Source: a phage
DNA length: 64,000 nucleotides
Strand: one strand, 5' to 3'
NCBI GenBank assembly: GCA_026066175.1
Contig: GCA_026066175.1_4721.2
Below are positions 16,645 through 41,347 of this stretch, in pieces (the stretch's first letter is position 1; the number at the start of each line of letters is the position of its first letter). The notes under the pieces were generated by a model. That model was not told the origin of the DNA. It was given only the letters and a program-made list of their open reading frames with translations, and ran no database searches. The position numbers and the translations under genes were made by a program.

Positions 16645-16659
16645 AAAACGTTGTTCCTC

Positions 16660-17763
16660 TTAAAAGTAATATTTCAGCGCCTCGCGAGAGACGTCAAGCA
16701 TAGCCGCCGTTGAGTTCGTGAAGAACTCGGCATAGCCCACAAGCGGCACCTTGATCCACGCGGTATACGCTGTAAGGTATCGAGAAAGGGCTACCATAGC
16801 ATCATCAGAAGCTGTAATGGATAACTGACCTTGTTGACGATACACATCGTTCAGTTTTGCTTGCAGGTTCCCTGCGATCTCAAGTAATTCGTTGGCGTAC
16901 TTTTTACGATGGTACGTAATAAGCAGATCAACACCGGTATTTACCGATTCGAGTAAAACGCCAATCTGCTCCAACGACGGCATGGTTACAACCATATCAC
17001 GCTCAACAGACACGACGTCCTGAACTTCAAATCGTGCTGATTGAATCGCGAGAGATTGTTGGATTGCTCCAGAACCCGTTGCGGTAACCTGATCAAGTCG
17101 TAGCATCCGGTTACCTAACAACGTCGTGTTAACCAGCCGCGATTCATTCAACGCACTGTACACCTTGTTCAACAGCGTGTGTGCATCACGATTAATCACA
17201 TCGATTAATGCGGTATCCGTCTGTTTTAAGATGATGTCAAGCGCTCTGTCTAACGTGTTTGCGAACTGTTTGAAGTCATCACGGAACGACGTTGACAACA
17301 GGTATTCTGCGATCTTCAGGTTTTGTTTGTATAACGTGTTTCCGGTGGTGAAGTCGAACCCGAAACTGTTTCCATAACGCAAATGTGGTGCGAGCGTGGG
17401 TGAGGCTTCAAAACTTTGCGCGATGGGTTTATGTCCAACCGCTTTCGTGTATTGACGACGGATATTACTCAGCTCGATTTGCAACGCACGACTGCGGTCG
17501 ATATACCGTGCGATGAAAGCAGTGATATTCCGCAACGTTGTCCAAATCGCATCGATGATCGCTTTGATGATTTTCATCGCAAGCTGGTTGTATGATTCCA
17601 GGGTAAGGAGATCAGCGCTTTCTGTAGCATAACCGGTTGCCAGAGCGCCGCCCGCTTGCTGATAAATAAGCTGATGGATTTGTCGTTGTGTTGCCGTCTC
17701 AGGTAGAGGTAAGGTTTTTAACAAGCTTAAGGCTTGGATTTGTCCATCATTGGTCTGCAGCAT
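16660..17763 (-). CDS. hypothetical protein, member of 5-gene paralog family (about 368 aa)
   Basis: Listed start 17826 is GTG; ATG at 17763 has a GAGGAA SD. Family-like helical segment with conserved Trp (AIIDAIWTTLRNI). Confidence 0.7.
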   Translation of the reverse strand: MLQTNDGQIQALSLLKTLPLPETATQRQIHQLIYQQAGGALATGYATESADLLTLESYNQLAMKIIKAIIDAIWTTLRNITAFIARYIDRSRALQIELSNIRRQYTKAVGHKPIAQSFEASPTLAPHLRYGNSFGFDFTTGNTLYKQNLKIAEYLLSTSFRDDFKQFANTLDRALDIILKQTDTALIDVINRDAHTLLNKVYSALNESRLVNTTLLGNRMLRLDQVTATGSGAIQQSLAIQSARFEVQDVVSVERDMVVTMPSLEQIGVLLESVNTGVDLLITYHRKKYANELLEIAGNLQAKLNDVYRQQGQLSITASDDAMVALSRYLTAYTAWIKVPLVGYAEFFTNSTAAMLDVSREALKYYF

Positions 17764-19048
17764 TGCGGGTTTCCTCAAGTTCGAGATGTGCATCAAGGTA
17801 ATCGTTAAGACCATCGATGACGTCACAGACCGTTAACAGGAATCGAGCAAAAGCAACGGCCTGGAAGCCAACGACATTACGAGCAATGCTAACACGTTGC
17901 ACAATGGCGGTTGAAGCCGCTTGGTCATCGTAGATCTGATGCAACAAACGTTCGTAGGGCTGAATCCATTCATCTTGATCAGCGAGGCTTGCCTCAAGAC
18001 AACGTTTAAATTCCAATTGACGTAGCGTTGACCATAAGGTGCTTAATGCGCCGATGATGGCGTTGGTTCCATCAAGAACATCGTTCAAGGGCAGGAAACG
18101 GAATCCGTCCTTCGCTGACTGGAAAGGAATGGCTTCCCATACAACGCTAAACTGTGCGCCAGTATAATCATCGACGTTCAGTACTTTTAACTGCGAAGCG
18201 CCAACCGGTGCGTTTATGATGACGTCATTGGTTTCAGTGTTCTCCAACGGCTTTTCACACAACGCGTCGTTGATCGCCTTAAGGATGTTTTCCCAACATG
18301 CCTCATTTTCAGCCGCGATGTTATCTTTGTTCTCCAACACCGGTGCTTTTAATAACCGCATCAGTAACGGATCAAGCTGACGATGCCATGCCGCCAGTAT
18401 CCCGGTATTTGTCATGATGTTTTCTGCGGTCTGTTGTAAATCCGCAACGCTGCTTACCGCACCGCCTCTTGGATGGAGATATCGCCAGTTATACGGGAAG
18501 TTCTCCCAGAAGGCATTATCTTCGTTAACCGTATATGCAGGAAGATTTTTCAGTTTTACGGCTTTCTTCAGCAACGGTTTTACTTGACGCACAAAACGAC
18601 GATAACTGCGGTTGCAAATATCAATGGCGTAGCGATACAACTCGTTCATGTAAAGCCATAACGCTCGGGTTGCCTCTTTCGCGGTTTTGTCAAAACTTTC
18701 CATGTTAAGACTCATCCCACCTGAGGTTTCCTCTTCCATCCCATCGATGATCTGATTGGGATCCATTCCCATCCCAGCCGCTGCGGTTGAAGCGATATGT
18801 TTGATGGTATTAATATCACGTTCTTCAACTTCGGTCATGTTAGGGACAATATCTAACCGGAGTTTGTTTAATGTTTGAAGGTGTTGTTCACCTTCCTTCA
18901 TGACGGTGTTCGTTTCATCGAGTGAGCGAAGCTGATTTTCGATATTACCGACATCGAGGATGTTGCCAGCGACACCGAATGATTCTACAGGTTCATCATC
19001 TATCCCTTGAAACAACGCGGTCATGGGTTGTTGCAACACGTTTTCCAT
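17747..19048 (-). CDS. hypothetical protein, paralog family (433 aa)
   Basis: IKHIASTAAAGMGMDPNQ and ATRALWLYM segments align with the 19202 and 20504 gene products. Confidence 0.8.
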   Translation of the reverse strand: MENVLQQPMTALFQGIDDEPVESFGVAGNILDVGNIENQLRSLDETNTVMKEGEQHLQTLNKLRLDIVPNMTEVEERDINTIKHIASTAAAGMGMDPNQIIDGMEEETSGGMSLNMESFDKTAKEATRALWLYMNELYRYAIDICNRSYRRFVRQVKPLLKKAVKLKNLPAYTVNEDNAFWENFPYNWRYLHPRGGAVSSVADLQQTAENIMTNTGILAAWHRQLDPLLMRLLKAPVLENKDNIAAENEACWENILKAINDALCEKPLENTETNDVIINAPVGASQLKVLNVDDYTGAQFSVVWEAIPFQSAKDGFRFLPLNDVLDGTNAIIGALSTLWSTLRQLEFKRCLEASLADQDEWIQPYERLLHQIYDDQAASTAIVQRVSIARNVVGFQAVAFARFLLTVCDVIDGLNDYLDAHLELEETRNAADQ

Positions 19049-19105
19049 TTAGGACTCCTACGTAGGAAAGATCATGGTGGGTGATCATGTCCACCATTGT
19101 GCGCG

Positions 19106-19128
19106 GTATGGAGCGTGGCTCCATACCC
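19106..19128 (-). promoter_or_regulatory. perfect 10-bp hairpin GGTATGGAGC-GTG-GCTCCATACC in the 5-prime leader of the 17747-19048 gene
   Basis: Lies between the conserved palindromic hairpin and the start codon. Confidence 0.35.
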
Positions 19129-19162
19129 AAGTCAAAAGATAACCGGATATTAACGGCATATA

Positions 19163-19194
19163 CCCTCCTCCTTCCCTTCCGGGTTGGAGGAGGG
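19163..19194 (-). terminator. conserved palindromic hairpin (inverted orientation)
   Basis: CCCTCCTCCTTCCCTTCCGGGTTGGAGGAGGG, between the 19202 stop and the 19048 start. Confidence 0.55.
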
Positions 19195-19201
19195 ATTTAG
19201 C

Positions 19202-20494
19202 TTATTTTGCTTTCTCGGTTACCGCGTTGAAGTATTTCGCTGCAGCAAATACCGCCTCCGCATACTGACGGACAGAGGCACGGAGGATCTTGGTTCCTAA
19301 TACCGAGCTTAAACGAGCCATTTCTGTTACAGCCGCGATATAAGGACGTACGGTTTCACGATCGGCCTCAGGTAACTTGTCGAGCATTTCGCCCCACTTC
19401 GTTTTGATTTTCATTCCGTTGAGTTTAGCATCTCGTCCTACAGTGCTTGCCAAACTTTCAACTTTATGCAAATATGTCGGCTCCACCCTATGGAATGCCT
19501 TCAGATATGCCGTCAATGCGCTTTTCAGCTCATTCCCATCGTGGAAAATATTCACATTTTCGATATTATCTGTTACGGTGTCAACAACTTCGATATGAAC
19601 ATCCTTCACCAAAGCACATGCTTTAATGACATCTTTCTCTTTTTCTAACGCATCCAGCCCTTTAACGACATATTGTTTTCCGCCGCTTTCTGGAAGTCTG
19701 AACGCTCTCAGCGCAGCTTTAGTGGTCTGAAGATACTTATCTAGAACACTATCGAGCGTTGTTAAATCAGTTAGGACATTGATGTCGTAGTTGATGTCAC
19801 CGATCATAGTAAATAGGAAATCTGACGTCGCCGCACTTGCAGCTAATTGTTCGATATGTTTGCTAACGGATGTTGCATTAACCGATTTTGCGTTCGGGAA
19901 CATATTAACCATATTCCCGGTAGGCTTCTCTAGCTGCTTGATCTGACGTTCCCCTTTATTGACTTCGGATGCGATTTTGGTGATCTCAGCATAAGCCAGA
20001 ACGAGATTCTTGAAAAGCGTCTGGAGCAACTTAAACAATTGTTCAGCAATATTCGCGATGGTGACCCAGACCGCATACAGTGCTTGCGCTGCACGTTCCT
20101 TGAAGCCTTCCAGCACGATAGCTTGGCCTTCGACTAACTTATCATTAGCCTGGAACATGTCTTCATCAGACATACCCAGGTTAGCTGCCGATGTTGATGC
20201 GATTTGGCGGATAAGCGCAACGTCGCTGGCGCGGGCTTCTGTGATCGTTGATGCGATTACGTAGGCGGTATCTTCCAACGTTGCTGATGTCCGTACAGCG
20301 ATTTCAGCCAGTTCGCTGTTCTCGTCGATGCTGTCGTCGGTATGTCGAATCACCAACTCAACTTCATCTTCCTCAATTTCTGCGTTGGGGTCTTGTTGCT
20401 CGGGTGAAATCGATGCAAGAACATCTTCAGCGCTGAGTAGTGCGAGTTCAAAAGCGTTTTTATTGATGTTATCAAAAAGAGAAATACGGGCCAT
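19202..20494 (-). CDS. hypothetical protein, paralog family (430 aa)
   Basis: SDVALIRQIASTSAANLGM and VEGQAIVLEGFKERAAQALYAVW align with the 20504 gene product. Confidence 0.8.
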   Translation of the reverse strand: MARISLFDNINKNAFELALLSAEDVLASISPEQQDPNAEIEEDEVELVIRHTDDSIDENSELAEIAVRTSATLEDTAYVIASTITEARASDVALIRQIASTSAANLGMSDEDMFQANDKLVEGQAIVLEGFKERAAQALYAVWVTIANIAEQLFKLLQTLFKNLVLAYAEITKIASEVNKGERQIKQLEKPTGNMVNMFPNAKSVNATSVSKHIEQLAASAATSDFLFTMIGDINYDINVLTDLTTLDSVLDKYLQTTKAALRAFRLPESGGKQYVVKGLDALEKEKDVIKACALVKDVHIEVVDTVTDNIENVNIFHDGNELKSALTAYLKAFHRVEPTYLHKVESLASTVGRDAKLNGMKIKTKWGEMLDKLPEADRETVRPYIAAVTEMARLSSVLGTKILRASVRQYAEAVFAAAKYFNAVTEKAK

Positions 20495-20503
20495 GTGGGT
20501 TCC

Positions 20504-21823
20504 TTAACCTTTAGTATAGGCTTTAACGAGGGTGTTAATAAAAGAAGTTAATGCACGAAGGTACTGATAAGCGAATTGGTTTTCAATACGTTGCTCTTTA
20601 CTGCAGAGCATGATCGCCCGTTTCACCAGTTTGGGATATATTTCAACGTACGGTTTATAACTGTCGTCGTATTGCTGCGTATCGAATTTTTTCATGGCTT
20701 CATACTGCAGCTTTTCCATCTGACGAACACGAGCACGATCGAAGATCTTGGAGAACGCACGTCCGCGTTGGGTGATCGCAATCAGATCTTTCGCTAACGA
20801 AAGCGGTTTAACGCTACGGAAATCATCCGGTGTGGGTAGCGTGTAGTTTTCTGGATCGCTATCCCATTCGGTCGCTGCGTCTTCAACCACGACATCCAAT
20901 TTCAGATAATTTTCAATCGCGGCAAGAACGTTGTCTTTTGCCGCATTGAATTCTTTTAAGAACACAGCAGCATTAACATAACGAATACGTTTACCAGAAA
21001 CCGCCGGTGTAACCACATCACTCCCGTCAACGGAACCTCTGTTCTCCAATGCGGTTTTCAGTGTATCCAGAAACGACATGTAGTCCACAGGAAGTTGGTC
21101 AACACGATCTAAACGAAAATCGAATGTCTTCACACCAAGACCGGTGGTAAGGTCGTAACGTGCACCGCCTGCCATGATTCGGTTATAGTTCTCAAGGTTC
21201 TTCTTGATTTCGTCAACACCACCGACATGATTGCGATTGGAAAAGAGGATACGCCAACCGGCTTTGAACGGCACGGTAACCGTTTCTTCTTTACCTTTCG
21301 GAAGTTTTTCTAACGCTTTGATCGCATTCTGGAAATTGCGGGTTTCATCATAGATGATCCGCGTTAATCCTTCCAGGACAGCAGCCAGTTGCAGAACAAT
21401 ATCAACAATGATATCCCAGATCTTTTTCAACGCTCGAACGACGGTGTCTTTGAACCCTTCAACAACCAACGCTTCACCCACGGTGATGTTGTCAGTAGGA
21501 CGAAGCATTGCATCGGAAGGCAGACCTAAAGCGATTGAGGCGGATTCTTGAACGTTACGTACCAATGCAACGTCGCTGTAGTTAGCCGTCTCAATCGTTG
21601 GTGCAACATCAAAACTGATTTCTCGTAATGCTTCAACAGCAGGGAAAGCACGATCGAGCGCCTCTTCATGTTCATCGATGTTCGCTAAACGGAGTTCAAC
21701 CCCATCAGCGTCAATGACTTCGGTGGTAGGCTCTGCTGCAAGCGCCTCGGCAACGATGGGATCCTTCTCAAAAGCTTCAAGGCTAATATCGCCTTGTGTA
21801 GCAAATAGTGGTATACGTACCAT
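20504..21823 (-). CDS. hypothetical protein, paralog family (about 439 aa)
   Basis: Listed start 21847 is TTG; ATG at 21823 has a GGAGAC SD. Motifs SDVALVRNVQESASIALGL, VGEALVVEGFKDTVVRALKKIW. Confidence 0.8.
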   Translation of the reverse strand: MVRIPLFATQGDISLEAFEKDPIVAEALAAEPTTEVIDADGVELRLANIDEHEEALDRAFPAVEALREISFDVAPTIETANYSDVALVRNVQESASIALGLPSDAMLRPTDNITVGEALVVEGFKDTVVRALKKIWDIIVDIVLQLAAVLEGLTRIIYDETRNFQNAIKALEKLPKGKEETVTVPFKAGWRILFSNRNHVGGVDEIKKNLENYNRIMAGGARYDLTTGLGVKTFDFRLDRVDQLPVDYMSFLDTLKTALENRGSVDGSDVVTPAVSGKRIRYVNAAVFLKEFNAAKDNVLAAIENYLKLDVVVEDAATEWDSDPENYTLPTPDDFRSVKPLSLAKDLIAITQRGRAFSKIFDRARVRQMEKLQYEAMKKFDTQQYDDSYKPYVEIYPKLVKRAIMLCSKEQRIENQFAYQYLRALTSFINTLVKAYTKG

Positions 21824-21871
21824 GTGATGTCTCCAGTAATAATTCAAAAGATAAATCAGCGCAGCATAAGA

Positions 21872-21903
21872 CCCTCTCCCAACCCGGAAGGGAAGGGAGA
21901 GGG
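21872..21903 (-). terminator. conserved palindromic hairpin, variant CCCTCTCCC...GGGAGAGGG
   Basis: Between the 21926 stop and the 21823 start; preceded by GCATAAG as at 7913. Confidence 0.55.
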
Positions 21904-21925
21904 AATATGTCAGTTTACTAACTGA

Positions 21926-23257
21926 TTATTTCTGTGCTGCGTCAGCCGGTTTTTCAGCCGCCTGGCCGCTGTACTCTTTCAGCATTTTAGCAACGCCGTC
22001 CAGTACTGCGTTACCCGCCTGAACACCGTACTTCATCAGGCTAACCTGCGGGTTGATGTAGCAAGAACGTGCGTCTTTCAGTGCAGACAGCACAGTTTTA
22101 ACACGCTGTTTCTCTTGAGCAGAAACTTCGCCTTTCTTAGCCAGTTCAGCTTCCATATCGTCGCCGAATTTAACAGCGTCTTTGAAGCCCTGGGATTTCT
22201 TACCGATGTTACCTTTCGCAGCCAGCAGTTTATCGGCCAGCGCTTCAACGCTGTTGATCACCGCAGCCATCTGGTTCGGGGACAGTACATCGGCTTCCTG
22301 TTCCATCACGGTGATTGCGTTATTGCCGCGTTCCCAGGTCACTTTACCGTCGGTGGTTTTGAATCCCCAACCGTTCGGACCTTTCACATCAGCGATCGCA
22401 GGCGCGTTCAGTTTGTCGGTGTACTCAGTATGTGATTTAGACTTAACGAGTTCAACGAATTTATCCGCACGATCGTCAGCCGCCTTCATTGCTTTCTCGA
22501 AGGTATCTGCGATTTTGCTTGATGCACCAGCGATATCGATATCGCCAATATAACCGGTAACAGTGGTGCCCAGTTTAACTTTCGCGTTCTTCGGAGAGCC
22601 TTTACGTTTGGCGATCATTTCTTTCAGTTTAGCCGCACGTGCTTTCAGTTTGGTTGCACCGTCGAAGATACGATCGATGAACTTCACGAAGTTGTCCCAG
22701 GTGGATTTCAGGAAGTTCTTAATTGCAGTCCACAGTTTCTGCCACCATTTCTGTTCTTCCAGGAAGATCATGTTGGTTGCATCATAACGGGAAGCGGAAC
22801 CGCCGAAGCTTTCGAAGGAAGGCATGGTTTCCGGCAGTTTGAAGCCGATAGTACCACACAGACGTTTCAGATTACGCATGTGTTCTTGCGCGGTCTGTGC
22901 AGACATACCACCGTCTTTCAGATAGCTTTCGGTCGCAACAACGGTTTCCGTCATTTCGTCCATGGCTTCGTCCATGGCTTCAGCGGTTTCGTCGTCTTTT
23001 GCGATTTCGATAACAACAGCATCAACCTGCTCGATGTCACCACGGACTTCGATAGCCAGTTCGGTTTCAGCAGCGGTGTCTTCAGCGATTTCAGCACGTT
23101 CGGTCAGTTCAGCCACAACGGTTTCATCGCCTGCAGCAGCATCGGCTGCCGGTTCTGCTTCAACGGTTGCCGCAGCTTCCGGATCGATCTCAGCAGCCAG
23201 TTGAACCAGCTGTGCGTTAGATGGATTTGCGACAAGACGATCAAAAATAGAAGGCAT
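21926..23257 (-). CDS. hypothetical protein, distant member of the same paralog family (443 aa); probably abundant
   Basis: Strong optimal-codon bias; acidic N-terminal region; WQKLWTAIKNFL helix comparable to family members. Confidence 0.85.
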   Translation of the reverse strand: MPSIFDRLVANPSNAQLVQLAAEIDPEAAATVEAEPAADAAAGDETVVAELTERAEIAEDTAAETELAIEVRGDIEQVDAVVIEIAKDDETAEAMDEAMDEMTETVVATESYLKDGGMSAQTAQEHMRNLKRLCGTIGFKLPETMPSFESFGGSASRYDATNMIFLEEQKWWQKLWTAIKNFLKSTWDNFVKFIDRIFDGATKLKARAAKLKEMIAKRKGSPKNAKVKLGTTVTGYIGDIDIAGASSKIADTFEKAMKAADDRADKFVELVKSKSHTEYTDKLNAPAIADVKGPNGWGFKTTDGKVTWERGNNAITVMEQEADVLSPNQMAAVINSVEALADKLLAAKGNIGKKSQGFKDAVKFGDDMEAELAKKGEVSAQEKQRVKTVLSALKDARSCYINPQVSLMKYGVQAGNAVLDGVAKMLKEYSGQAAEKPADAAQK

Positions 23258-30152: not shown

Positions 30153-30184
30153 CCCTCCTCCAACCCGTAAGGGAAGGAGGAGGG
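30153..30184. terminator. conserved palindromic hairpin with GTAA loop between convergent genes
   Basis: CCCTCCTCCAACCCGTAAGGGAAGGAGGAGGG; flanked by ACATAA and AATATGCTGTTAT exactly as at 54842-54873. Confidence 0.6.
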
Positions 30185-30193
30185 AATATGCTG

Positions 30194-33100
30194 TTATCTT
30201 ACGTTATTGCTATTCTGCTGTTCACTGAACCAACCATAGACTTTGAGATCGGTACCGTATCTCAGTGCAAGGTATGCGTTCATCGCAGCACAGAACAACG
30301 TCGCGTAGTGCCATAAGAGCTCAACATCCATGTCATCGGGAGTCTTGGTAAAACCAGCACCTGGTACAAAGCGTGACGGTTCATGCATGAACGTGCGGTA
30401 CCAGTCGTGCTGTTGTTGTTTCGTCGTGAAATCACGGTGTGGTTCTAACGCTTCTCTTGCAAGACGACGATACTCGAGAAGATGGTGATTAGCCCGATTA
30501 TTGCGAGGGTAACTGACTTCGTAGTTAGGATCGACAGCTTGGCATAGCGCTGTTGAGTCTAATAACTCGATGGCTTTGACTAACTTATCGCTCGCGTTGG
30601 TGATGAGCGCCGATCTGTAATACTCGATCGAATTAGCAAGTTGCGAATAGAAGTCATCTAAGGCATCTGGATTTGATACCTGCAGATCAAGACCTAATGT
30701 CCACGGATAGCTGCTTTCATCATTGAGTTGCGGTACGACACCCAGGAGATGTTGGCAGATAGCTGCGTGATTATTGAACTGATCGTGGAAAATAGCTCGT
30801 GCAACTTCAATCGCATGATGATAACTCAAACGCCGTTCCTGACGTGTCGTCCTAAATGAGTTAACGGCGAGCAGTCCCGCGGTAGCCGCGCAAACATCAG
30901 TGTCGTTGACGTTGTTAAGCACATAGTTACTAAGCTGGAAAGATTCTTGCTTCAACGTTCCATTGGTCGCCGTTGCTTCGCTATTCGCTTTATCAACGAT
31001 GGTGCTTAGCGCGTTAATATAACGTTTAGCGCGAACTTCCAACCACTGTGCGATCCCAAGCACATCCACAGCCGCTTTAGCAAGGTCACGTGCGTTCACG
31101 ATTTCGTTCTTCAATGCACCCAGCCCTTTATTTTCAGGTGAGGAGGCTTGTTGTCGAATCATGCTGTTCAACATGGTAAGCAGGTTATCCAGCTCGTGTC
31201 CGCTGACCTTGTTACGTGCGTCAGTAATCGGCCCTTGCAGGAATTTACGACAACCGTCATTATACCGAATCAGTTTATCCACGTCGATGGATTCGTTCGC
31301 GGTTTCCTTGAACTGATTCTTTAATTCTTCACGGTAGTCGTGTATCTCGCTTGTAAGATTATCAACGGTGATACCATTGTGACCAAGAAGAACTTTACTG
31401 AAGTTGCCCTTCTCGAACGCCAGTGCGATGCCTTCACGAATCTTAGCCAGCTTATCCTGATCTAACTCACGACCGTTTGACAGTTCTTTCACTTCAGCGC
31501 TGATTATTGCTGCAACTGTTCCAAGGTTATCGGTAACCCCTTTGAACGTGCTTGACCAAACACTTCCCGCTTCAGCGTATTTTGCGATGGTCTGGATACC
31601 GACGCTATGTAGCGACGCTAAACGTTTCTTCGTACCTTCGGTAAGCAATGCATCTTTAGCTCGCGTAAGTTGACTGTTATTGGCTTCCGCTTGCTGGATG
31701 GCCGCTTTCGCATTCCCGTTACGCCAGCTCTTAACCAACCAATCGACTAAACGTTTCAGGATATTGATGGTATATTCCATCGTACGTCGTAACGTTTCCC
31801 ACGCGCTTTCAGCGGTATAGATCCCACCAACAGTGTACCCTTCCATCTTCAGCGCTTTGGTATCGGTTTGACGTGCCAACCATTCTACCGTCGCAGAACA
31901 AACGTTTACGAACGCCTCCAGGTAGTTGTAATAGGCCTCTGTTGCGGAGGTTTCGTTGAGCTTGGAATGCAGATAAAACTGTTCGTATAGCTCGTCGTCA
32001 TCACCGAAGGCGTCGTAGTTCCACAGTTCGGTATCGCAGCCGGTACCACAGAAGACATCCGCCGTTGTAAACTCCTTAAGTGCTTTCGTTGCGTCGTTGG
32101 TCAGGAATTTACCTGTCTCAAGTACGTCGTCAACATTAAGTCTCGGGAGTTCGTCAGTAATTGGGTTTTCCAGCATCAACGTATTGAAGAACACGCTGTA
32201 CTTGTATCCAAGCCATTTTGGATAACTGTTTTCAGATATCGTAGACGCCGGTTTGATTTTCTTGGCTTCAGCCAACGTGTCTTCTGCAACCTGATATTGG
32301 TTTTCCCCAGCTTTGATACGTCGTAATGCTTTTTCTTCCAACTGTTTGAGTTTGGTGTGCCGTGCTTGAGCTGGAGCCTCAACCAGTTTTTGTACCGACC
32401 GCATGGCGGAAATCGCTTCTTTCAATGTGGTGATCGGCATACGAACTTTACCGTCATCGAAACTCAGCGCGCGAGCAATACGTCGACTTACAACAGGTTC
32501 GGTATGGATGTTTCTTTCTACCCACGATTTGTTTGCGTAGGTTTGCGTGATTTGCTGCTGGATCTTTTCAAGATAGCCCCAGCTTTTGGATGCTTTGCCG
32601 TCCAAAAGCGGATTAGGTCCTTTCTTATCAAAAAGCTTTTTGATAGGATCAAAGAAACCTTCTTGCACGAGATCGATACGGGTGTAACCATCAGCTGCTT
32701 CGATTTCTTCTTGGGTTTTATCCCAGAAGTCGTCGCTCTTTGCAGCAACCGCTGTATCTTTAATGTCCAGGATGATCTGACCCACCGTTTGCGCAAACAG
32801 CAAGGCCGCACGTACCGATTGTGCGAACATCCGCTGATATTTGATTCGAACGCATTGCATCTGGGTTAGCAGATTCAGTTGCGCGATCCCATCCAAGGTG
32901 CTATCTTGAGCAAGTCCTTCAGCCTTAGCGATAACCTGTTTTACACGTTCAGCGACATCAACGTATTGCTGGCATACATCCCGCAGAATACGTGCTGCGA
33001 AGACCCCGGTACCGATATAGTTCAACAGGTCTTTTAATGACCATTCAGACGGACAATCGGCTGGTGCGGTAGGGAGTAAGCAACCATCACCGTCCATGAA

Positions 33101-33799
33101 TCGCTCTAATGCGCTAATATCCTGATTTTCTACGCTCATGGGGATATCGACATCAGCCGCTTGCAGATCCAGCATCTGTTGTAGGATGTTGGTGTCGGCT
33201 TGTACGAGCGTTGCAAGCGCTCGGCTGTGTGAGATTATTGGTAACGCTGGTGACCATACTGCAGCAAGCTTGTCGGCGTGACGTTGAATGGCATACCCCA
33301 TATCCTCGATCACATCGGGATGCTCGATAACCCCCTGAAGCGTTTGATGCAGCTCACCGAGTTGCTGAGACAGATCGACCATCATGGTGTTGAAGGTTTC
33401 GCCATCCTCTTTGTGGTTGTCCAGACGCTCGAGTTCATGTTGCAGCAATGCGACGAGCTGTCCGTTGCCTTCTTGCTTCAGCTTGCTTTCCATTAATGTA
33501 ATGGCTTTATCGACGATCTGACGCGCTTCACGAAAACCGGTTGTGGAAGGAAGCTCTGTCCATAACGCCAGCGGTTTACCGTCAAGGGCTTCCGGCATCG
33601 ATAACGAAAGCATAGTCAGTTGTTGGCGTGATACTTGCTGTTCACGGTGTAATGTTTCTTTTAACGCCAGGAGATCGTCAAGAAACGCGCCGTTAAGGGC
33701 GGTCGTACGCGGTGTTGAATTAATACCGTCAGTTAATGATTCAAGCACCAGGAGACCGTTATCAGCTGAAGAGAGTCCCGCGGCAAGATATTTGTTCAT
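30194..33799 (-). CDS. giant helical protein (about 1201 aa)
   Basis: Start moved to in-frame ATG at 33799 (GGAG SD) so the 33815-33845 hairpin is intergenic. Shares an LVQEGF...KLF motif with the 931-aa neighbour. Confidence 0.85.
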   Translation of the reverse strand: MNKYLAAGLSSADNGLLVLESLTDGINSTPRTTALNGAFLDDLLALKETLHREQQVSRQQLTMLSLSMPEALDGKPLALWTELPSTTGFREARQIVDKAITLMESKLKQEGNGQLVALLQHELERLDNHKEDGETFNTMMVDLSQQLGELHQTLQGVIEHPDVIEDMGYAIQRHADKLAAVWSPALPIISHSRALATLVQADTNILQQMLDLQAADVDIPMSVENQDISALERFMDGDGCLLPTAPADCPSEWSLKDLLNYIGTGVFAARILRDVCQQYVDVAERVKQVIAKAEGLAQDSTLDGIAQLNLLTQMQCVRIKYQRMFAQSVRAALLFAQTVGQIILDIKDTAVAAKSDDFWDKTQEEIEAADGYTRIDLVQEGFFDPIKKLFDKKGPNPLLDGKASKSWGYLEKIQQQITQTYANKSWVERNIHTEPVVSRRIARALSFDDGKVRMPITTLKEAISAMRSVQKLVEAPAQARHTKLKQLEEKALRRIKAGENQYQVAEDTLAEAKKIKPASTISENSYPKWLGYKYSVFFNTLMLENPITDELPRLNVDDVLETGKFLTNDATKALKEFTTADVFCGTGCDTELWNYDAFGDDDELYEQFYLHSKLNETSATEAYYNYLEAFVNVCSATVEWLARQTDTKALKMEGYTVGGIYTAESAWETLRRTMEYTINILKRLVDWLVKSWRNGNAKAAIQQAEANNSQLTRAKDALLTEGTKKRLASLHSVGIQTIAKYAEAGSVWSSTFKGVTDNLGTVAAIISAEVKELSNGRELDQDKLAKIREGIALAFEKGNFSKVLLGHNGITVDNLTSEIHDYREELKNQFKETANESIDVDKLIRYNDGCRKFLQGPITDARNKVSGHELDNLLTMLNSMIRQQASSPENKGLGALKNEIVNARDLAKAAVDVLGIAQWLEVRAKRYINALSTIVDKANSEATATNGTLKQESFQLSNYVLNNVNDTDVCAATAGLLAVNSFRTTRQERRLSYHHAIEVARAIFHDQFNNHAAICQHLLGVVPQLNDESSYPWTLGLDLQVSNPDALDDFYSQLANSIEYYRSALITNASDKLVKAIELLDSTALCQAVDPNYEVSYPRNNRANHHLLEYRRLAREALEPHRDFTTKQQQHDWYRTFMHEPSRFVPGAGFTKTPDDMDVELLWHYATLFCAAMNAYLALRYGTDLKVYGWFSEQQNSNNVR

Positions 33800-33814
33800 A
33801 AAACACTCCGTTGG

Positions 33815-33845
33815 CCTAGGGGAAGGCTGAAAACCTTCCCCTAGG
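33815..33845 (-). terminator. perfect 12-bp hairpin CCTAGGGGAAGG-CTGAAAA-CCTTCCCCTAGG
   Basis: Between the two giant genes. Confidence 0.5.
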
Positions 33846-33858
33846 GTTATAAACACAA

Positions 33859-36654
33859 TTAAGCTAATTTACCGAAACCGGCTTTCTGCAGTTTCTCGTT
33901 GATGATTTTCGCTTCAGCGAAGACGTAATCGCGGTAGGCGGTCACTAACGCATCCACGCGTGAACGCAAGGCTTCTTCGAAGCTATACCAGGCGGCGATT
34001 TCACGAATCTGCACGCTGATATAATCAACGGTTGAGCGAAGCTCGGTTGCGTTTTCTTGCGGGATGGCTTTCACTTGGCGAGCAACATCGCTTAAACGGC
34101 GGAACTGTGTTTCGATTTCTTTAAACTTACTGTCGGCAAGTTTGCTGAATTCGTCACCAGAACGGGTAAATAACAGATAGCTGTTGCCGTCAAGTGCGGT
34201 CGCTAACTGCTGAAGTACGTTGGTGTCCGGATACACAGGAGTACCGCTTTGCAGTACTTTCTCACCGAATTCCGCGAAGTCCTTCGGTGGTAAGTGTGCA
34301 GACGTTGTCAATTCGTTGAAACGGAAAGTCAGCGAATTATCATACAGCATCCGGTACGCTTCCATACCCTGTTTCATGGTACCGGCCAGGTTAGCCAGAC
34401 GCGGAGCAATCTCGCCTTCTTTAGCGCGTTTCTGGTCTTCTAACGCCCCTTCGAGTTCTTTACACTGGTCGTTCAGATACACGATACGATCAGGACGTAG
34501 ACGACGCATCTCACGAAGAATAGTATCCAGCTTACCTTCCTGGAAATAACCCAACGTTAAAGACGTACACGCTTGCTGAAGACGATCGAACACCGGTAAG
34601 GTTACCATCTCCTTACGGATACCATCAACAATCGCAGAAACAGCCGAAAGTTTCTGTTCTGTAGTCAATGGAACATCAGAGGCCGACTTGCTGGGTGCAC
34701 CAACAACGTTACGCATTGCGTCGGTATCCTCGGTTTTATCAACCTCTTTACGAACATGCTCATCAGGAACATAAACGTTCGCGTTACGTTTCGCCTGCTT
34801 GATGGCGTCGTTGGCCGCTTTTTCGGTGGCCGCTACGCTATCGGCACGTTTCTTCAAGAGTTCAATAATCCAGAGCAACAGACGACGAATCGCAGTGTAG
34901 GCTGTCGTGATGATGACACCGATAACAGCCATCTTCATGATACCGAACGATTCCATGGTCGGCTCTAACGCTTGGTCTGGCATATACCGTTCACGCAGCT
35001 CCAGATAGATCTGCTCATCTGGTTTGCTGACCTCACCACGATGCGAAGTCCGATAAATGGCTTCGTCAATCTCAACAAGATCTTTGCGTGCCTGACGGTC
35101 AGATTCTGTTAGGTAAGCACAACCGGATACGTCGTCTTCGAAGCTTAAGAATTTGAAAAAGTCACTGACGTCGATCTTGATCTTCTTCGCTTCATTATCG
35201 ACATCGATAACATCTTTTTTCTGTGCCTGATATTCCGCTTTGATGTCGTTCACCGGCTTCAACGCACGTTCTTTTAATACCTGCACGATCTGTTTCCAGT
35301 CGGCGTCACGCTCAAGAACAAGGAAGTAATTCTTGAGTTCAAAAGCACGGTAACGCGCAACGAGTTGTTCTACCTGAATATGAGCGAGTTGCACATCCAT
35401 CAGCCAACGCGACATTGCTGAGATCAAACGGCTATAAGCAAGCAATGTCTGATATGTTAGCTTCATGTGCTTTTCGTACAGCTCAATATCGCCGTCTTGA
35501 ATATCAGCCGTTGGGTTCATTTCCTTCGTTGCTTTGAAGATCTGTTCGGCCTCATTTAACGTTTGTTCGAATTTGACTTCATTAAACGTGTCAAACGGTT
35601 CAGCCAACTCCATCATTCGATCGTGAAGCTCACGAACCCAGGCTTCCTTATTGTTGCGAATAGCTGCGTCATCGTGAAGTTCAGTTTGATGTTTCTGTAC
35701 CCATTCTTCGACGATATCAGCGGCGGCAACAATTCCTGTACCATCGGAAACTAACGGAACAACTCCAGCAAGTACGCCTACACACGCCGGGGTTTTCCAA
35801 TAATCGTTCAAAGCGTTTCTGAATTCAACGATGGATTGTACGTTTGGTACCGTATCCAAAAACGTACTGCCGTTACGGCTCATTGTCGTTACGATATCAG
35901 CGAATTCCTTCTGCTTAGCGGTAACAAAAGGAACCAGGACCATAAGCCATTCAGCAACCGACTTCGCTTTCTCTTTCAGATTTTTGTCAGCGATTTCCTT
36001 AAGGTTTATCGCACCACCGTAACCTGCAAGCTCTTTATATACGTCGCTAAGGGTCATCTGTTTATCCAACATTTCTTTGAAACGTGGGTAATCAGCACCT
36101 AACGCATCGACAATATCGTTGATTACGTCATCAGTTGTTGCGATAAACTTCTTCGTATCAACGTTTGAATATTTCCAGACGTATCGTACTGCTTTCTTGA
36201 TTCCTGCAAAGATAAACGCCCAGATACGCTTGATGAGTTCCCAGACTTTCTTCGCGCCATCGACAAACAGTTTAGAGACCTTGGCAACGAATCCTTCCTG
36301 CACCAATTCAACGCCGTTACGTGATGGGATTTCCGTGAAGAAAGCATCCGGCAGTTGTTTCGGGAATGCGTCACCAAGACGCATACGCAGTTCCGGTACA
36401 TCAGCACGAGAAATACCGCGTGTTACTAATTGTTCGTGAAGACGAACGTTTTCTTCACCAGAGGTCACGAATTCGTCAACATCGAAGGAGACCATTGTTT
36501 CCTGATCTTCGGTGGTAACGACGCTTGAACCATCACTGGTTTGGATGTCTTCGTCAGGGAATGCCATGAGCATACCGTGACGCATTTCAACCACCCCGTA
36601 ATCGGTTGCTAAACCGAATTCGTTGTGGTCTGGGGTAATAACTGGGATACTCAT
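33859..36654 (-). CDS. giant helical protein (931 aa)
   Basis: ATG start overlapping the upstream stop (ATGA); motif GVELVQEGFVAKVSKLF. Confidence 0.85.
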   Translation of the reverse strand: MSIPVITPDHNEFGLATDYGVVEMRHGMLMAFPDEDIQTSDGSSVVTTEDQETMVSFDVDEFVTSGEENVRLHEQLVTRGISRADVPELRMRLGDAFPKQLPDAFFTEIPSRNGVELVQEGFVAKVSKLFVDGAKKVWELIKRIWAFIFAGIKKAVRYVWKYSNVDTKKFIATTDDVINDIVDALGADYPRFKEMLDKQMTLSDVYKELAGYGGAINLKEIADKNLKEKAKSVAEWLMVLVPFVTAKQKEFADIVTTMSRNGSTFLDTVPNVQSIVEFRNALNDYWKTPACVGVLAGVVPLVSDGTGIVAAADIVEEWVQKHQTELHDDAAIRNNKEAWVRELHDRMMELAEPFDTFNEVKFEQTLNEAEQIFKATKEMNPTADIQDGDIELYEKHMKLTYQTLLAYSRLISAMSRWLMDVQLAHIQVEQLVARYRAFELKNYFLVLERDADWKQIVQVLKERALKPVNDIKAEYQAQKKDVIDVDNEAKKIKIDVSDFFKFLSFEDDVSGCAYLTESDRQARKDLVEIDEAIYRTSHRGEVSKPDEQIYLELRERYMPDQALEPTMESFGIMKMAVIGVIITTAYTAIRRLLLWIIELLKKRADSVAATEKAANDAIKQAKRNANVYVPDEHVRKEVDKTEDTDAMRNVVGAPSKSASDVPLTTEQKLSAVSAIVDGIRKEMVTLPVFDRLQQACTSLTLGYFQEGKLDTILREMRRLRPDRIVYLNDQCKELEGALEDQKRAKEGEIAPRLANLAGTMKQGMEAYRMLYDNSLTFRFNELTTSAHLPPKDFAEFGEKVLQSGTPVYPDTNVLQQLATALDGNSYLLFTRSGDEFSKLADSKFKEIETQFRRLSDVARQVKAIPQENATELRSTVDYISVQIREIAAWYSFEEALRSRVDALVTAYRDYVFAEAKIINEKLQKAGFGKLA

Positions 36655-37091
36655 GCATTCTCTCCTTGCAGTGCGTTAGCGAAAGCCGTTGCGAGTTGCG
36701 CAACCAGCTTAGGATCAACACCTTCGATAACGTCGGGCAGCCCTGCGGTTTCTTGGTCACGAACGGCGGAGGCTAATAACAGCATGGTTTCAGGTGCGGT
36801 CGGCTCATGCACCATGCGGTAACGCAGGCACCAGAAGTAGCGGGCAACGTCTAACGCATCGGCCAGCCCAATAACCAGTACCTTGTTCAGCTTATCCAGC
36901 CCTTCACGGATTTTAGGGAGATGTTCGCGAACGAAAATGCTATCTGCGGTCAGATCTTCTTTTTCAGCGAATACGGGCATGCTGTAACCAGCGATATAAC
37001 CTGCGGCAATACTTAGCGCACGGGTCTGTTGTTCGGCTGGGAAATCACGTACCAGGTCTTTCAGTTGAACAGCGAAATCAGAAATATTCAT
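36651..37091 (-). CDS. hypothetical protein (146 aa)
   Basis: ATG start; coupled to the 931-aa gene. Confidence 0.7.
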   Translation of the reverse strand: MNISDFAVQLKDLVRDFPAEQQTRALSIAAGYIAGYSMPVFAEKEDLTADSIFVREHLPKIREGLDKLNKVLVIGLADALDVARYFWCLRYRMVHEPTAPETMLLLASAVRDQETAGLPDVIEGVDPKLVAQLATAFANALQGENA

Positions 37092-37124: not shown

Positions 37125-38435
37125 TTACGCGATGATGGAGTCGAGTTTCGCTGACGCTTTGAACAGATCGTTGTTCATTGTTGAAGAAAGGACTTGCTGA
37201 ATCTCTTCCTGTTTAACGGCTTTACGAACCCCAGGACGAAGGATAAGCGTAACCATCTGCGAGAAGGTACGATTATTGTTCATCACACTCAGTGTTTCAT
37301 CGATTGTTTTGATGGTATCCAACGTCATGGAACGAACATCGCTTGGGATATCACGATCTTTCAGGCGTATGATTAAATCTTGTTTGATTTTACGGAATCG
37401 TTCCATGTCGTTATCGTAAATGTTGTATGTTGGATCTAACCAAACCGAAAGCGCGGTTACCGCTACAACAACTAACACGCCGATAGCACCAACAGAAGCT
37501 AAACCTATCGCCATCATGGAGACGATAGTAGCATCCATGATGAAGGAGAGCCAGAACATCGTTTTGGACTTCATGGAGTTGGTACCATAAAGTCGAAACA
37601 TTTTAGCAAGCCCGCTAACGAGATACTCCCCACCACCATGACGCGTAGCGAACTGATCAGCCATGAATTCGGAAGAAACGTCGGTATAGCGTCCAGCGTT
37701 GTTGACATTTCTTAACTGCATCGCTTTGTTAGAAACATAAACCGTGTACCAGACATTACCATCGTCTGAATCGCTGATTTTGTTTACGTCGACGTTAGTA
37801 TCCAGCGTTTTGTTTAACGCCTTAGCCAGTTCAATACGTTTTACCTTATCGGTTGTCCCTAGCAGTTCACGCTGTACAGTCATGATTGAGGCTTCAACAC
37901 GAACCGTTTCCGATAATGTTTCAAGGAAAGTAAATGCGTGCCCGATTTCATGCAGCATTATGGCCGCTTTTTCTTCCGGAATAAATGGTTCTGTCGCTGT
38001 TAGCAATTCATACGTGATGGCGGAACGAATCTTCAATTCCTCAAAGATACCGTAAACACGACCTTTTTCTAAATCGACATAACCGACAGGCGTATCTTTA
38101 ATCTTCTTAAGGAGTGTGACACCATCGGCACCGCGCATCCATAATCGATGATAGTCTGCCATGATCGTGTTGTTTGTCGAAATATCCGGCGGGTACACGT
38201 AGGCGTTCATCTGGCCCATTTTCACATCAACCGAAAATTCGATGTTCAACCCCGTATAGCGTTTAACCATCTCGGTTAAATGACCGTCCTTGAAAACGTT
38301 TAAAACCTCTTTTTTATCCAGTCCTTGTTTGCTTCTGAAGAACTCGGTCATTTCCTTGAACAAAGAACCATCCTGGAATTTGATGGCCTCCATCGTTAAC
38401 TCGTCATGACCATACACACGTTGTAGTAATGACAT
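37125..38435 (-). CDS. putative HtpX/M48-like zinc metalloprotease with membrane hairpin (436 aa)
   Basis: HEXXH at product residues 162-166 (AAIMLHEIGHAF); about 90 aa downstream SSEFMADQFATRHGGGEYLVSGLAKMFRL resembles the M48 third-ligand region (E. coli HtpX [25 protein letters not shown]); about 40-residue hydrophobic stretch at residues 293-333. Confidence 0.75.
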   Translation of the reverse strand: MSLLQRVYGHDELTMEAIKFQDGSLFKEMTEFFRSKQGLDKKEVLNVFKDGHLTEMVKRYTGLNIEFSVDVKMGQMNAYVYPPDISTNNTIMADYHRLWMRGADGVTLLKKIKDTPVGYVDLEKGRVYGIFEELKIRSAITYELLTATEPFIPEEKAAIMLHEIGHAFTFLETLSETVRVEASIMTVQRELLGTTDKVKRIELAKALNKTLDTNVDVNKISDSDDGNVWYTVYVSNKAMQLRNVNNAGRYTDVSSEFMADQFATRHGGGEYLVSGLAKMFRLYGTNSMKSKTMFWLSFIMDATIVSMMAIGLASVGAIGVLVVVAVTALSVWLDPTYNIYDNDMERFRKIKQDLIIRLKDRDIPSDVRSMTLDTIKTIDETLSVMNNNRTFSQMVTLILRPGVRKAVKQEEIQQVLSSTMNNDLFKASAKLDSIIA

Positions 38436-40117: not shown

Positions 40118-40210
40118 CCTTCGTTCTGTAAAAGTTTACCGATGTATGGAAATTTCTGTGAGATACCAAAGGTACTCGATAAGTTTAGGAATTTCTGGAC
40201 GGAGGTAATT

Positions 40211-41347
40211 ATGTTGGAACATCTTGAGTGTTTGGACAATGAATACTTAAATTTCACCAATCGTCGTTATCGTATCTTCGAGGACGGTACCCTCTACGAT
40301 TATAAAGAGAATCGCAAAGTACCCGTCATCATCGAAGACAACAACTCTTACGTTATCATTGACTGGTATCGTGGAGTGGGTAAATACGAGCTGGGAATGA
40401 TCATACTTACGGCATTTGATCGAATCCATATCCCTAACTATCTCTACGACGAAATCGAATCTTTGTTTATTGACAACGATCCGACGAATTTCTCGTATAG
40501 TAACCACATCTATCGTTTCCGTAACGGTCCGTTAGCGGTGGAAGGGTATCCGGGGTACTACTACATCCCGTTTGCCACGTACTATGCGTTAAATGAACAA
40601 GGTGAATGTTTAAGTCTCTTGTCGGGGGAAGGTATAACGTGGACAATGACGCCACAGAACGGCACACGACGTCCAGGCTATCGATACAGAAAAGTAACAC
40701 CCGATAGTGGGTTCACAGCCCAACTGTATCGTCATCGTGCGTTGATGTTAACGTTCCGTCGTTATGATGCGAGCGTTGTAGAAATGACCGTTAATCACAA
40801 GAACGGGATTAAAGGCGATGATTGGCTGGATAACCTTGAATGGGCAACCTACAAGGAAAACAACAATCATGCGCGTATCAACGGCTTATGCGACGGTAAA
40901 GCAAAACCCGTTAAGATCTTTGATTACGTTCGTCACACCGAGCGTCAATTCAAAAGCATCGCTGAAGCAGAACGCGCTTATCCACACGTTGCAAAAGGAC
41001 GTTTCAAATGGTGGGTTGAGAATCCGCCGAAACGCATTCCAGAATGCAACCTGTACATTAAACATGCGTTCGATAACACCCCATGGCCAGAATGGAAACT
41101 GGGTGACGATCGTCGTATTGAGGATGTATCAGGTATTCCTATCATTGCACTGAACATGGTAACCGGCGAGAAACGAGTGTATCCGTCGGTTACTGCTGCA
41201 GGTAAAGATACGAAAACAAGTTGGATAACCGTAAGACGTCATTGCGATAGGCGTGTTGTTCCTGCGAAACAAGCCTGGTGCTTCCGTTATGTTGATGATG
41301 TCAAGAATATGCCGGAGTTAACCTCCCCACCAACAATCGAACAGTAA
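40211..41347 (+). mobile_element. HNH homing endonuclease ORF (379 aa from ATG 40211)
   Basis: GGAGGT SD 7 nt upstream; HNH core LYRHRALMLTF...VNHKNGIKGDDWLDNLEWATYKENNNHA (nt about 40763-40886). Confidence 0.8.

Follow-up and report, generated by a model that had tools for sequence, protein, structure and literature searches.

A motif shared by two large, probably capsid-internal proteins of a Goslar-like jumbo phage is most likely a prohead-protease cleavage site

Introduction

The internal head proteins of the phiKZ-type phages (the PF12699 type, which includes gp93, gp95 and gp97 of phiKZ and gp53 to gp58 of Goslar) are high-copy, fast-evolving, helical proteins that are packaged in the capsid. 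Each carries a propeptide when first made, the prohead protease cuts after a Glu residue, and several of these proteins are injected; such Glu-specific processing of head proteins has been known in this group of phages since 2010–2012. The internal proteins of phage T4 (IPI-III and Alt), which bear a capsid targeting sequence and are cut by the protease gp21, follow the same logic of a short N-terminal leader, a Glu cut at a hydrophobic-x-E site, packaging and delivery with the DNA (PMC5694885). Here, we analyze two adjacent minus-strand genes in a 64,000-nucleotide stretch of phage DNA (contig GCA_026066175.1_4721.2 of GenBank assembly GCA_026066175.1; hereafter, the window), whose products of 1201 and 931 amino acids (aa) share the motif LVQEGF followed by KLF. 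The T4 proteins have no sequence relationship to these products, and they are small and single-domain as opposed to multi-site polyproteins of 900–1200 residues.

The closest described relatives of the 931-aa protein make up the gp65/gp86/gp148/gp47 family of vertex-binding-complex or "head ejection" proteins of chimalliviruses, whose members are alike in having a propeptide (a predicted one in gp65 and the 931-aa protein) of ~110–120 residues that ends in x-Q/L-E, then an amphipathic or hydrophobic helix, and then a helical bundle. The gp86 of phiKZ is a proteolytic product, cut by the prohead protease gp175 at SQE-122; its homolog in 201phi2-1, gp148, is cut at SQE-113, and the positional counterpart in SPN3US, gp47, is cut at ALE-111, which removes 111 residues as a propeptide whose inferred role was targeting to the prohead. 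Once mature, SPN3US gp47 starts with a predicted hydrophobic or transmembrane helix, predicted to interact with the host membrane. For Escherichia phage vB_EcoM_Goslar, a cryo-electron microscopy (cryo-EM) structure and a virion proteome were presented in a 2026 preprint (bioRxiv 10.64898/2026.04.21.720040). There, gp65 is equated with phiKZ gp86 and lines the capsid vertices on the inside, under the pentons, in 55 copies; it is placed in a vertex binding complex together with gp66, which was assigned by cryo-EM and is present in 110 copies. Compared with phiKZ, Goslar gp65 has an extra folded domain where phiKZ gp28 sits. The same preprint lists gp067 as a virion protein of ~48 copies. Purified Goslar virions also contain gp064 (48 peptides, 46% coverage, ~110 copies with a range of 73–173), which is absent from the atomic model and whose copy number can be put more broadly at roughly 55–170.

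Comparison of the window with these systems leads us to suggest that both of its large genes encode capsid-internal proteins and that the motif they share is a maturation cleavage site, which we consider likely. The 1201-aa protein would, with similar likelihood, be a mosaic precursor delimited by such sites and composed of a leader, an N-domain, a cassette, a central domain and a C-domain.

Results

The window and its two large genes

Goslar is the sole named phage that matches the region at the nucleotide level (megablast, 89% identity over 75% of the query), and the genes of the window stand in the same order as Goslar genes 62–68. We take the window to come from a close relative of Goslar, which is a nucleus-forming jumbo phage (chimallivirus) of E. 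coli. By orthology, a 402-aa plus-strand gene corresponds to the tail-tube initiator gp62 and a 997-aa plus-strand gene to the inner baseplate wedge protein gp63; the minus-strand genes for proteins of 1201, 931 and 146 aa and for a 436-aa protein with a HEIGH motif correspond to gp64, gp65, gp66 and gp67 (Table 1). An initial annotation, made from the letters of the window without database searches, had singled out two large adjacent open reading frames (ORFs), and these are indeed present on the minus strand at 30194..33856 and 33859..36654. Within the first of them the 1201-aa reading starts at an ATG at 33799, with GGAG seven bases upstream; this reading is common to all homologs, and protein P0001, 99% identical to the product, is also 1201 aa long. 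The small gene and the HEIGH gene that the annotation had placed next door are likewise where it put them. Its description of both products as mostly helical agrees, for the 1201-aa protein, with a low-confidence AlphaFold2 model in which helix makes up 73% and, for the 931-aa protein, with the solved Goslar ortholog and with the phiKZ complex, described as alpha-helix rich. It had also seen no polymerase catalytic motif, and we find neither NADFDGD nor DFDGD in the two proteins; RNA polymerase subunits were rejected as an identity on this ground and since the genes of the virion RNA polymerase lie elsewhere.

A conserved junction in both proteins

The copies of the motif are IDLVQEGFFDPIKKLF at residues 375–390 of the 1201-aa protein and VELVQEGFVAKVSKLF at residues 115–130 of the 931-aa protein. 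The sharing of LVQEGF, with KLF eight residues later, had been the central observation of the initial annotation, and it holds: the two proteins have nine identities in an ungapped 14-mer (BLASTP E = 0.006 in one single comparison). When 300 composition-preserving shuffles were made, 17 pairs (5.7%) had some hexamer in common, and none reached 9/14. A second shared hexamer, EAKKIK, was rejected as a signal of homology, as it is not collinear and probably due to chance. The core of the motif does not vary among 14 homologs of the 1201-aa protein, though the 250 residues that precede it fall to ~35% identity, nor does it vary among 12 homologs of the 931-aa protein.

These properties are most likely those of a prohead-protease site of the form L-x-x-E↓G/S-aromatic (the arrow marks the cut), after which comes the helix that forms the N-terminus of the mature product. 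The two copies would then resemble each other because both proteins are substrates of the same protease and begin, once mature, with the same kind of N-terminal helix. The PF12699 paralogs of the window carry the same hhxE↓GF signature as the two large proteins: ALVVE↓GFKDTVVRALKKIW in the gp57-like protein, AIVLE↓GFKERAAQ in the gp56-like, LLTLE↓SYNQLAMKII in the gp54-like and VATE↓SY in the gp58-like. The gp53-like protein (1127 aa, window 13261–16644, minus strand) has two such sites, DLKQE338↓SF and IAME829↓GF, so that it, too, is probably a precursor of several parts. Over its last ~300 residues it bears a weak resemblance to the cassette of the 1201-aa protein that is described below (hhalign E 0.006). 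A loose pattern modeled on these sites matches 11 times in the 56 ORFs of the window, compared with 0.61 ± 0.78 times in shuffled sequences, and 10 of these matches fall within genes for internal head proteins.

Direct evidence for cutting comes from the mass spectrometry (MS) of Goslar virions. The semi-tryptic peptide ANSEAAAVSGTLKQE is found there with an area of 14100, as against 5460 for the tryptic ANSEAAAVSGTLK, and its presence in virions shows that Goslar gp64 does undergo cleavage behind the Glu equivalent to E952. In the phage of the window we infer cleavage at E20, E380 and E653 of the 1201-aa protein and at E120 of the 931-aa protein; conservation, the boundaries of the cassette and the alignment of its family are what point to the first three. 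Such processing would generate the peptides GFFDPTK and TDLVQE from gp64, NGVELVQE and GFVAKVSK from gp65, and GYGIYTAESAWETLR, SLTDGINSTPR and AFDLNEVV; the tryptic peptides that span predicted sites would be TDLVQEGFFDPTK and NGVELVQEGFVAK. As a separate observation, the chain deposited for Goslar's major capsid protein (MCP; L005 7440-9662, minus strand) begins at S158, after ...CESEE153↓LVQLS, where the LVQ is coincidental. A chain that starts just after E153 suggests that the MCP propeptide, too, ends at a Glu.

The 931-aa protein belongs to the gp65/gp86 family

In a tblastn comparison with Goslar gp65, the 931-aa protein shows 85% identity at 100% coverage, and its residues 1–931 align with residues 1–934 of the chain named gp65 in PDB entries 11fg and 11mk (1766 bits). 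A third entry, 36za, was also matched, in which the chain covers residues 135–934. We identify the protein on these alignments as the ortholog of Goslar gp65 and thus as a vertex binding complex protein of the phiKZ gp86 type; both this identity and the structure of the solved ortholog are already known. Chain C7 of 36za (55 chains) is labeled "Inner-peripheral baseplate spoke gp32" in the deposition, while its sequence is that of gp65 residues 135–934; the name is apparently a labeling slip. The gene occupies a slot downstream of gp84-like and gp85-like genes and convergent with gp87/gp88-like baseplate genes, as seen in the Goslar and KTN4 loci.

What makes the shared motif informative in this protein is its position. 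An hhalign alignment places ...NGVELVQE↓GFVAK of the 931-aa protein on ...LNVTISQE↓AVMAT of phiKZ gp86, so that the motif occupies the position of a maturation site that has been mapped by experiment. The sequence that follows Glu120 is GFVAKVSKLFVDGAKKVWELIKRIWAFIF, and the deposited Goslar gp65 model begins at residue 135, 14 residues later. The protein differs from phiKZ gp86 in being over twice as long (931 versus 422 aa), and P3 of its site is V where the gp86-type relatives have S or A.

The 1201-aa protein is probably a mosaic precursor

Neither the whole sequence of the 1201-aa protein nor its segments gave anything usable in Pfam, PHROG or NCBIfam, the PDB sequence search was empty, and the full AlphaFold2 model (predicted local distance difference test [pLDDT] score 53.7) had no significant PDB match by Foldseek. 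Against Goslar_00064 it shows 82% identity over 78% coverage. The two are alleles of the same locus: their shared segments are 82–97% identical, and the leader at the N-terminus, the junction LVQEGFFDP and the LKQE site are the same in both. They differ in that the allele of the window has a 266-residue cassette (residues 386–651) that is missing from Goslar gp64, and in their C-terminal alleles, which are only ~53% identical.

The variation within the family is not evenly distributed. Among 14 diverse homologs, residues 1–95 are conserved, 96–350 hypervariable, 351–952 nearly invariant and 953–1201 again hypervariable, and conservation changes abruptly at LVQE380↓GF, LKME653↓GY and LKQE952↓SF. 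The N-domain residues 96–350 fall into two allele classes that are ~35% identical, and the C-domain allele classes are 38–59% identical to each other and vary independently of the N-domain and the cassette. Altogether, N-allele, presence of the insert and C-allele assort independently, with seven combinations among 120 homolog clusters. In genomes where gp64 is only 68% identical, gp65 is ~90% identical. The end of the leader, NGLLVLES, is invariant in the 14 homologs, and the cassette-family proteins P0245, P0251, P0255 and P0258 start with comparable leaders that end in xSxE↓G. The N-domain is modeled by AlphaFold2 as all helical (pLDDT ~55–75), the C-domain is the best-predicted part of the full model (pLDDT ~80), and the protein is without a strongly hydrophobic segment. 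Taken together, the coincidence of allele boundaries with putative cleavage sites argues for a mosaic, site-delimited precursor, the reading that we favor as likely.

An optional cassette with its own family

The precise absence of residues 386–651 from Goslar gp64 and from other forms of 930–934 aa makes this cassette the clearest module of the protein; it is lacking in 35 of the 120 homolog clusters. A search of 1.8 billion representative proteins returned only 20 relatives. Two of these are relatives of the gp64 core, one of them being P0243, which is 27% identical in the multiple alignment and 33% by phmmer. Some 16 of the 20 match residues 362–654 only. These relatives of the cassette are either stand-alone proteins of ~300 aa, as in Klebsiella phage Eowyn, or polyproteins with two or three tandem copies. 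Every copy, in an alignment of 18 sequences with 17 distant homologous segments, starts with [VI]S[TM]E↓G[LIF]xDxxKK[LF]F, as a comparison of P0247 (ISTEGLWDGIKKLFDAKAPDP) with the window (LVQEGFFDPIKKLFDKKGPNP) illustrates. Copies within polyproteins end in ...WL..Q....[VI]S[LM]E↓[SG], and the window's ...WLARQTDTKALKME↓GY aligns with that end. The LVQEGF copy at residue 380 marks the N-terminal edge of this insert, which Goslar lacks, and is not the site orthologous to E120 of the 931-aa protein.

The history of the insertion can be read, with due caution, from the forms that lack it. P0243 has no cassette, and its junction reads ...EAADGYTTE↓GAWEAFRR; the Goslar short form retains both cassette ends (...LVQEGFFDPTKMEGY...). 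These two observations suggest insertion of the cassette at a site that already existed, with a secondary deletion in Goslar. The contig of P0243 was sought in viral and metagenome contigs and was not found, and a phage collection matched Goslar only; a further search for homologous proteins with the cassette alignment found nothing.

Modeled alone, from the alignment of its family, the cassette is predicted with confidence (pLDDT 79.8, predicted template modeling [TM] score 0.77), with a folded core at ~390–653 and with both putative sites in its disordered ends. Foldseek found no neighbor of this model in PDB; the tip proteins IpaD and SipD (E 0.5–1.8) were treated as noise. When searched against BFVD, the model had five matches at E ≤ 1e-3 and probability 1.0, with Eowyn at E 5.5e-9 and Deimos-Minion and Noxifer at ~1e-4, and weaker matches are named "Internal head protein" or "Virion structural protein". 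A jumbo-phage internal-head-protein fold is therefore predicted for the cassette from its model, and the BFVD targets are possible members of PF12699. The cassette of the window itself has no match to PF12699 (phiKZ_IP) at the Pfam gathering threshold of 27 bits. In contrast to the internal head proteins of the PF12699 type, the domain would here be part of a larger, multi-domain precursor.

In several cassette-bearing polyproteins of the family (among P0245, P0248, P0249, P0254, P0255 and P0258), sites of the V-S-L-E↓S type join on a further conserved domain, similar from protein to protein, at one terminus, which in P0248 is the N-terminus. In P0248 this domain is nucleoside 2-deoxyribosyltransferase-like (PF15891, 38.9 bits, above threshold; sub-threshold in P0254 and P0245), which suggests that an enzyme is packaged in the capsid as part of a cassette-bearing precursor.

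Observations that weigh against processing at the motif

Several findings sit uneasily with the proposed cleavage at the shared motif. The sole directly supported cut, at the equivalent of E952, is in the Goslar ortholog and not in the phage of the window, and no peptide that proves a cut at LVQE↓GF occurs in the part of the Goslar peptide table that was searched, up to ~"D...". Within the same part, AFDLNEVV, GFFDPTK, TDLVQE, NGVELVQE, the MCP N-termini and the gp57 and gp58 sites are all missing; most of these absences are uninformative. The P3 residues V and K fit neither the S/A/G-x-E rule of phiKZ nor the A-x-E rule of SPN3US. A fully tryptic peptide in the Goslar virion MS spans KAE294↓GL, and so not every xxE↓G is cut. 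Pieces expected to be removed are not fully cleared either, as a weak peptide from the gp65 propeptide (area 451) and a tryptic peptide from the gp64 N-domain region (n = 1) are both present in Goslar virions. The count of the signature across the window is descriptive and not a test, as the loose pattern was chosen after the sites had been seen. The link of the cassette to the known internal head proteins is similarly loose: only 3 of its 18 family members match PF12699, all sub-threshold (best E 4.8e-4), and a profile comparison of the cassette with the window's own PF12699 paralogs was negative.

Alternative readings

The rival that survives best, and that we nonetheless think somewhat unlikely, is that the two genes are whole-length tandem paralogs, produced by duplication of a gp86-type vertex protein, so that the motif would be a relic of ancestry. 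The genes are adjacent and on the same strand, and the phiKZ slot (KTN4 locus) holds a single gene, gp86, where Goslar-like phages carry two. Residues 54–96 of the 1201-aa protein align with residues 78–121 of the 931-aa protein (hhalign probability 67.5%, E 5e-5; QQVSRQQLTMLSLSMPEALDGKPLALWTELPSTTGF... with RGISRADVPELRMRLGDAFPKQLPDAFFTEIPSRNGVELVQEGF). At the orthologous N-terminal position, P0243 keeps a gp65-like site, GVDLAME↓GF, its block ending ...IPSTTGVDLAME↓GFAKAL where the 931-aa protein has ...IPSRNGVELVQE↓GFVAKV. That much belongs to the reading that we favor, in which the two genes probably share an ancestral propeptide and cleavage region and plausibly descend from a duplication that preserved it. 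Extension of this ancestry to the whole length is another matter. A full-profile hhalign of the 1201-aa and 931-aa proteins is confined to 47 columns around the motif (probability 8.8%), and the residue-380 copy of the motif belongs to a mobile cassette with its own family. A hidden Markov model (HMM) of the cassette built by jackhmmer recruits neither gp65 nor phiKZ gp86, and the cassette matches the gp65 family profile over 26 columns only, at a probability of 1.5%. The highest-probability PDB match of the full model by Foldseek is phiKZ gp86 (8y6v_G; probability 0.21, target TM 0.43), but with an E of 6.9 it lacks significance, and the model behind it is poor. Even gp65 and phiKZ gp86, a structurally established pair, are barely detected by sequence methods (hhalign probability only 1.2%), and negative profile results therefore mean little in this family. 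The common origin that the initial annotation had proposed is accordingly retained for the N-terminal blocks, with no homology detectable over the remaining length. In our reading, the LVQEGF...KLF match sets the native site of gp65 beside the first residues of a cassette that was imported.

An improbable alternative is that the GF...KLF segment is itself functional, as a membrane-active or capsid-docking helix used on ejection into the early infection vesicle. Conservation extends beyond the Glu (G[LIF]xDxxKK[LF]F in the cassette, GFK...KKIW in gp56/gp57), the predicted transmembrane N-terminus of mature SPN3US gp47 offers a precedent, and the idea is compatible with the cleavage-site explanation. 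Yet the cassette model shows the segment as no more than a short helix of low confidence that lies apart from the folded core, the 1201-aa protein is, as noted above, without a strongly hydrophobic segment, and Goslar gp64 retains only GFFDPTK, with no KLF.

Very improbable, in our judgment, is cleavage of the motif by the neighboring 436-aa HEIGH protein, the M48-like protease whose possible processing role the initial annotation had suggested for a test, instead of by the prohead protease. The gene lies in the same operon-like block, and in its product the HEIGH motif is followed downstream by SSEFMAD (ExxAD), with a pair of hydrophobic helices spanning residues 292–339; homologs, found in 248 jumbo-phage records, are co-packaged virion proteins in many jumbo phages, and some GenBank annotators call them M48 proteases. 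A Zn-metalloprotease is possible, with the HExxH and ExxAD motifs behind the "M48-like" label in place and with sequence searches of Pfam, NCBIfam and PDB empty as to M48 membership. M48 enzymes are not known to prefer Glu at P1. Cleavage after Glu has been attributed by experiment to gp175-type proteases in phiKZ, 201phi2-1 and SPN3US, and it points to a prohead protease of the T4 gp21 or phiKZ gp175 type in the present case.

Hardly credible, finally, is a chance similarity between two long helical proteins of similar composition or, alternatively, an identity of the two as proteins of the tail tape-measure type. The hexamers shared by some shuffled pairs and the abutting tube-initiator and baseplate-wedge genes speak for these ideas, but 9/14 was never reached by shuffling, and the motif stays unchanged between hypervariable flanks and is met again in other head proteins. 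A tape measure, of which a virion would have a few copies inside the tail tube, was rejected as an identity: gp65 is modeled inside the capsid at 55 copies, and the ~110 copies estimated for gp64 are far above tape-measure stoichiometry.

Hairpins and neighboring features

The hairpin that the initial annotation had drawn between the two large genes is real, with a perfect stem (Table 1). The stem is identical in Goslar (L001, ~14800-14830), and the 7-nt loop is reverse-complemented there (TTTTCAG versus CTGAAAA), as if the palindrome had been flipped. It has no T-run and was not called by a terminator scan. A second, GC-rich hairpin lies between the convergent 1201-aa and 997-aa genes and is a probable bidirectional terminator, judging by its letters.

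Beyond the HEIGH gene, at 38618–41347 on the plus strand, a 499-aa protein has as its sole signal a family-B DNA polymerase exonuclease domain (weak, Pfam E 0.023), and the 401-aa ORF that follows matches a Goslar gene annotated as a NUMOD1/HNH homing endonuclease; this suggests a polymerase gene split by a mobile endonuclease. Goslar-like genomes, of which roughly 300 were found in assemblies of Enterobacteriaceae, also occur as contigs of 235–248 kb in many isolate assemblies of E. coli, Salmonella and Shigella (NCBI, ENA, Logan), a hint that lytic Goslar-like jumbo phages are carried in bacterial cultures.

Table 1. Positions of the genes, protein segments and hairpins discussed in the text, in coordinates of the window
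Feature	Position	Strand	Basis or remark
gp53- to gp58-like internal head protein paralogs (PF12699 type) with the same signature	13261..23257	-	Pfam PF12699 matches, motif scan
GC-rich hairpin (CCCTCCTCC...GGAGGAGGG), then TTATGTTTG, between convergent 1201-aa and 997-aa genes	30153..30184	.	read directly from sequence
1201-aa gene, long allele of Goslar gp64	30194..33799	-	predicted precursor polyprotein of internal head/virion proteins
hypervariable C-terminal domain, residues 953-1201 of 1201-aa protein	30197..30943	-	at least 3 allele classes
near-invariant central domain, residues 654-952, ends LKQE952↓SF	30944..31840	-	at least 90% identity in all 120 clusters
optional cassette, residues 381-653, ends LKME653↓GY	31841..32659	-	absent from Goslar gp64; fold matches
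motif LVQE380↓GFFDPIKKLF, predicted prohead-protease site and cassette N-terminal helix	32630..32671	-	invariant core; family alignment
N-domain, residues 21-380	32660..33739	-	conservation profile, segment table
conserved N-terminal block, residues 54-96	33512..33640	-	homologous to 931-aa propeptide
leader, residues 1-20, MNKYLAAGLSSADNGLLVLE↓S	33740..33799	-	ends L-V-L-E↓S; resembles capsid-targeting leader
intergenic hairpin between 1201-aa and 931-aa genes	33815..33845	-	-27 kcal/mol, z = -3.7
931-aa gene, ortholog of Goslar gp65	33859..36654	-	PDB chains, orthology, synteny
strongest hydrophobic segment, residues 566-598 of 931-aa protein (MKMAVIGVIITTAYTAIRRLLLWII)	34861..34959	-	Kyte-Doolittle 19-residue window 1.68; invariant in homologs
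motif LVQE120↓GFVAKVSKLF, predicted prohead-protease site and mature start	36265..36306	-	invariant in 12 homologs; aligned to gp86 site
predicted N-terminal propeptide, residues 1-120 of 931-aa protein	36295..36654	-	36za chain starts at 135; gp86-family propeptides
146-aa gene, Goslar gp66 / phiKZ gp85, dimeric core of vertex binding complex	36651..37091	-	synteny, annotation
436-aa HEIGH protein, Goslar gp67 / phiKZ gp84 position	37125..38435	-	91% identity to Goslar_00067

Discussion

The sequence of events that we consider most likely is a conventional one for head proteins of this group of phages. Both proteins would enter the prohead by way of their N-terminal regions or propeptides, for which a targeting role is presumed; a gp175-type (T4 gp21-like) prohead protease would then cut both after Glu, and the segment after the cut, an amphipathic helix, would become the N-terminus of the mature fragment. 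Mature gp65 would join the vertex complex at ~92 kDa, down from 106 kDa, and gp64 (134 kDa) would yield up to four pieces of about 40, 30, 33 and 28 kDa. Our guess is that the latter are either vertex-associated or are ejected factors that interact with the host. The hypervariable and freely assorting end domains of gp64 suggest a host-specific interaction after ejection, and the same host-interaction argument was made by Thomas and colleagues for the rapidly diverging gp47/gp86 slot.

A more elaborate scheme can be entertained, which we regard as unlikely in its entirety. It supposes that gp64 is a protease-delimited cargo polyprotein whose central domain docks by gp65 at the inner vertices and whose end domains and cassette are exchangeable injected effectors. 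Cleavage would set these modules free to enter the early infection vesicle together with the DNA. Recombination at the junctions formed by the cleavage sites would exchange them, driven by selection specific to the host, whether to counter its defenses or to evade its sensors. The Goslar cryo-EM map has unassigned helical-bundle density beside gp65 (bioRxiv 10.64898/2026.04.21.720040), and this density, along with a gp64:gp65 ratio near 1:1 to 2:1 by label-free quantification, makes it attractive to guess that the central domain of gp64 is vertex-associated. As for the internal proteins that are injected, their role is "a key unsolved mystery" in the words of the paper on the Goslar structure.

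None of this overturns the current understanding of the nucleus-forming jumbo phages. What is new is a view in which gp64 is a precursor of mosaic build, delimited by cleavage sites and containing an optional internal-head-protein cassette, and a cleavage signature that is usable for Goslar-like phages and that predicts mature termini for at least eight head proteins. The end domains of gp64 are the most variable part of a neighborhood that is otherwise 85–98% conserved, and an internal-head-protein cassette appears to move between phages as a unit bounded by protease sites. If the cargo scheme were true, the gp64 locus would be a capsid-borne analogue of the modular polymorphic toxin and effector loci.

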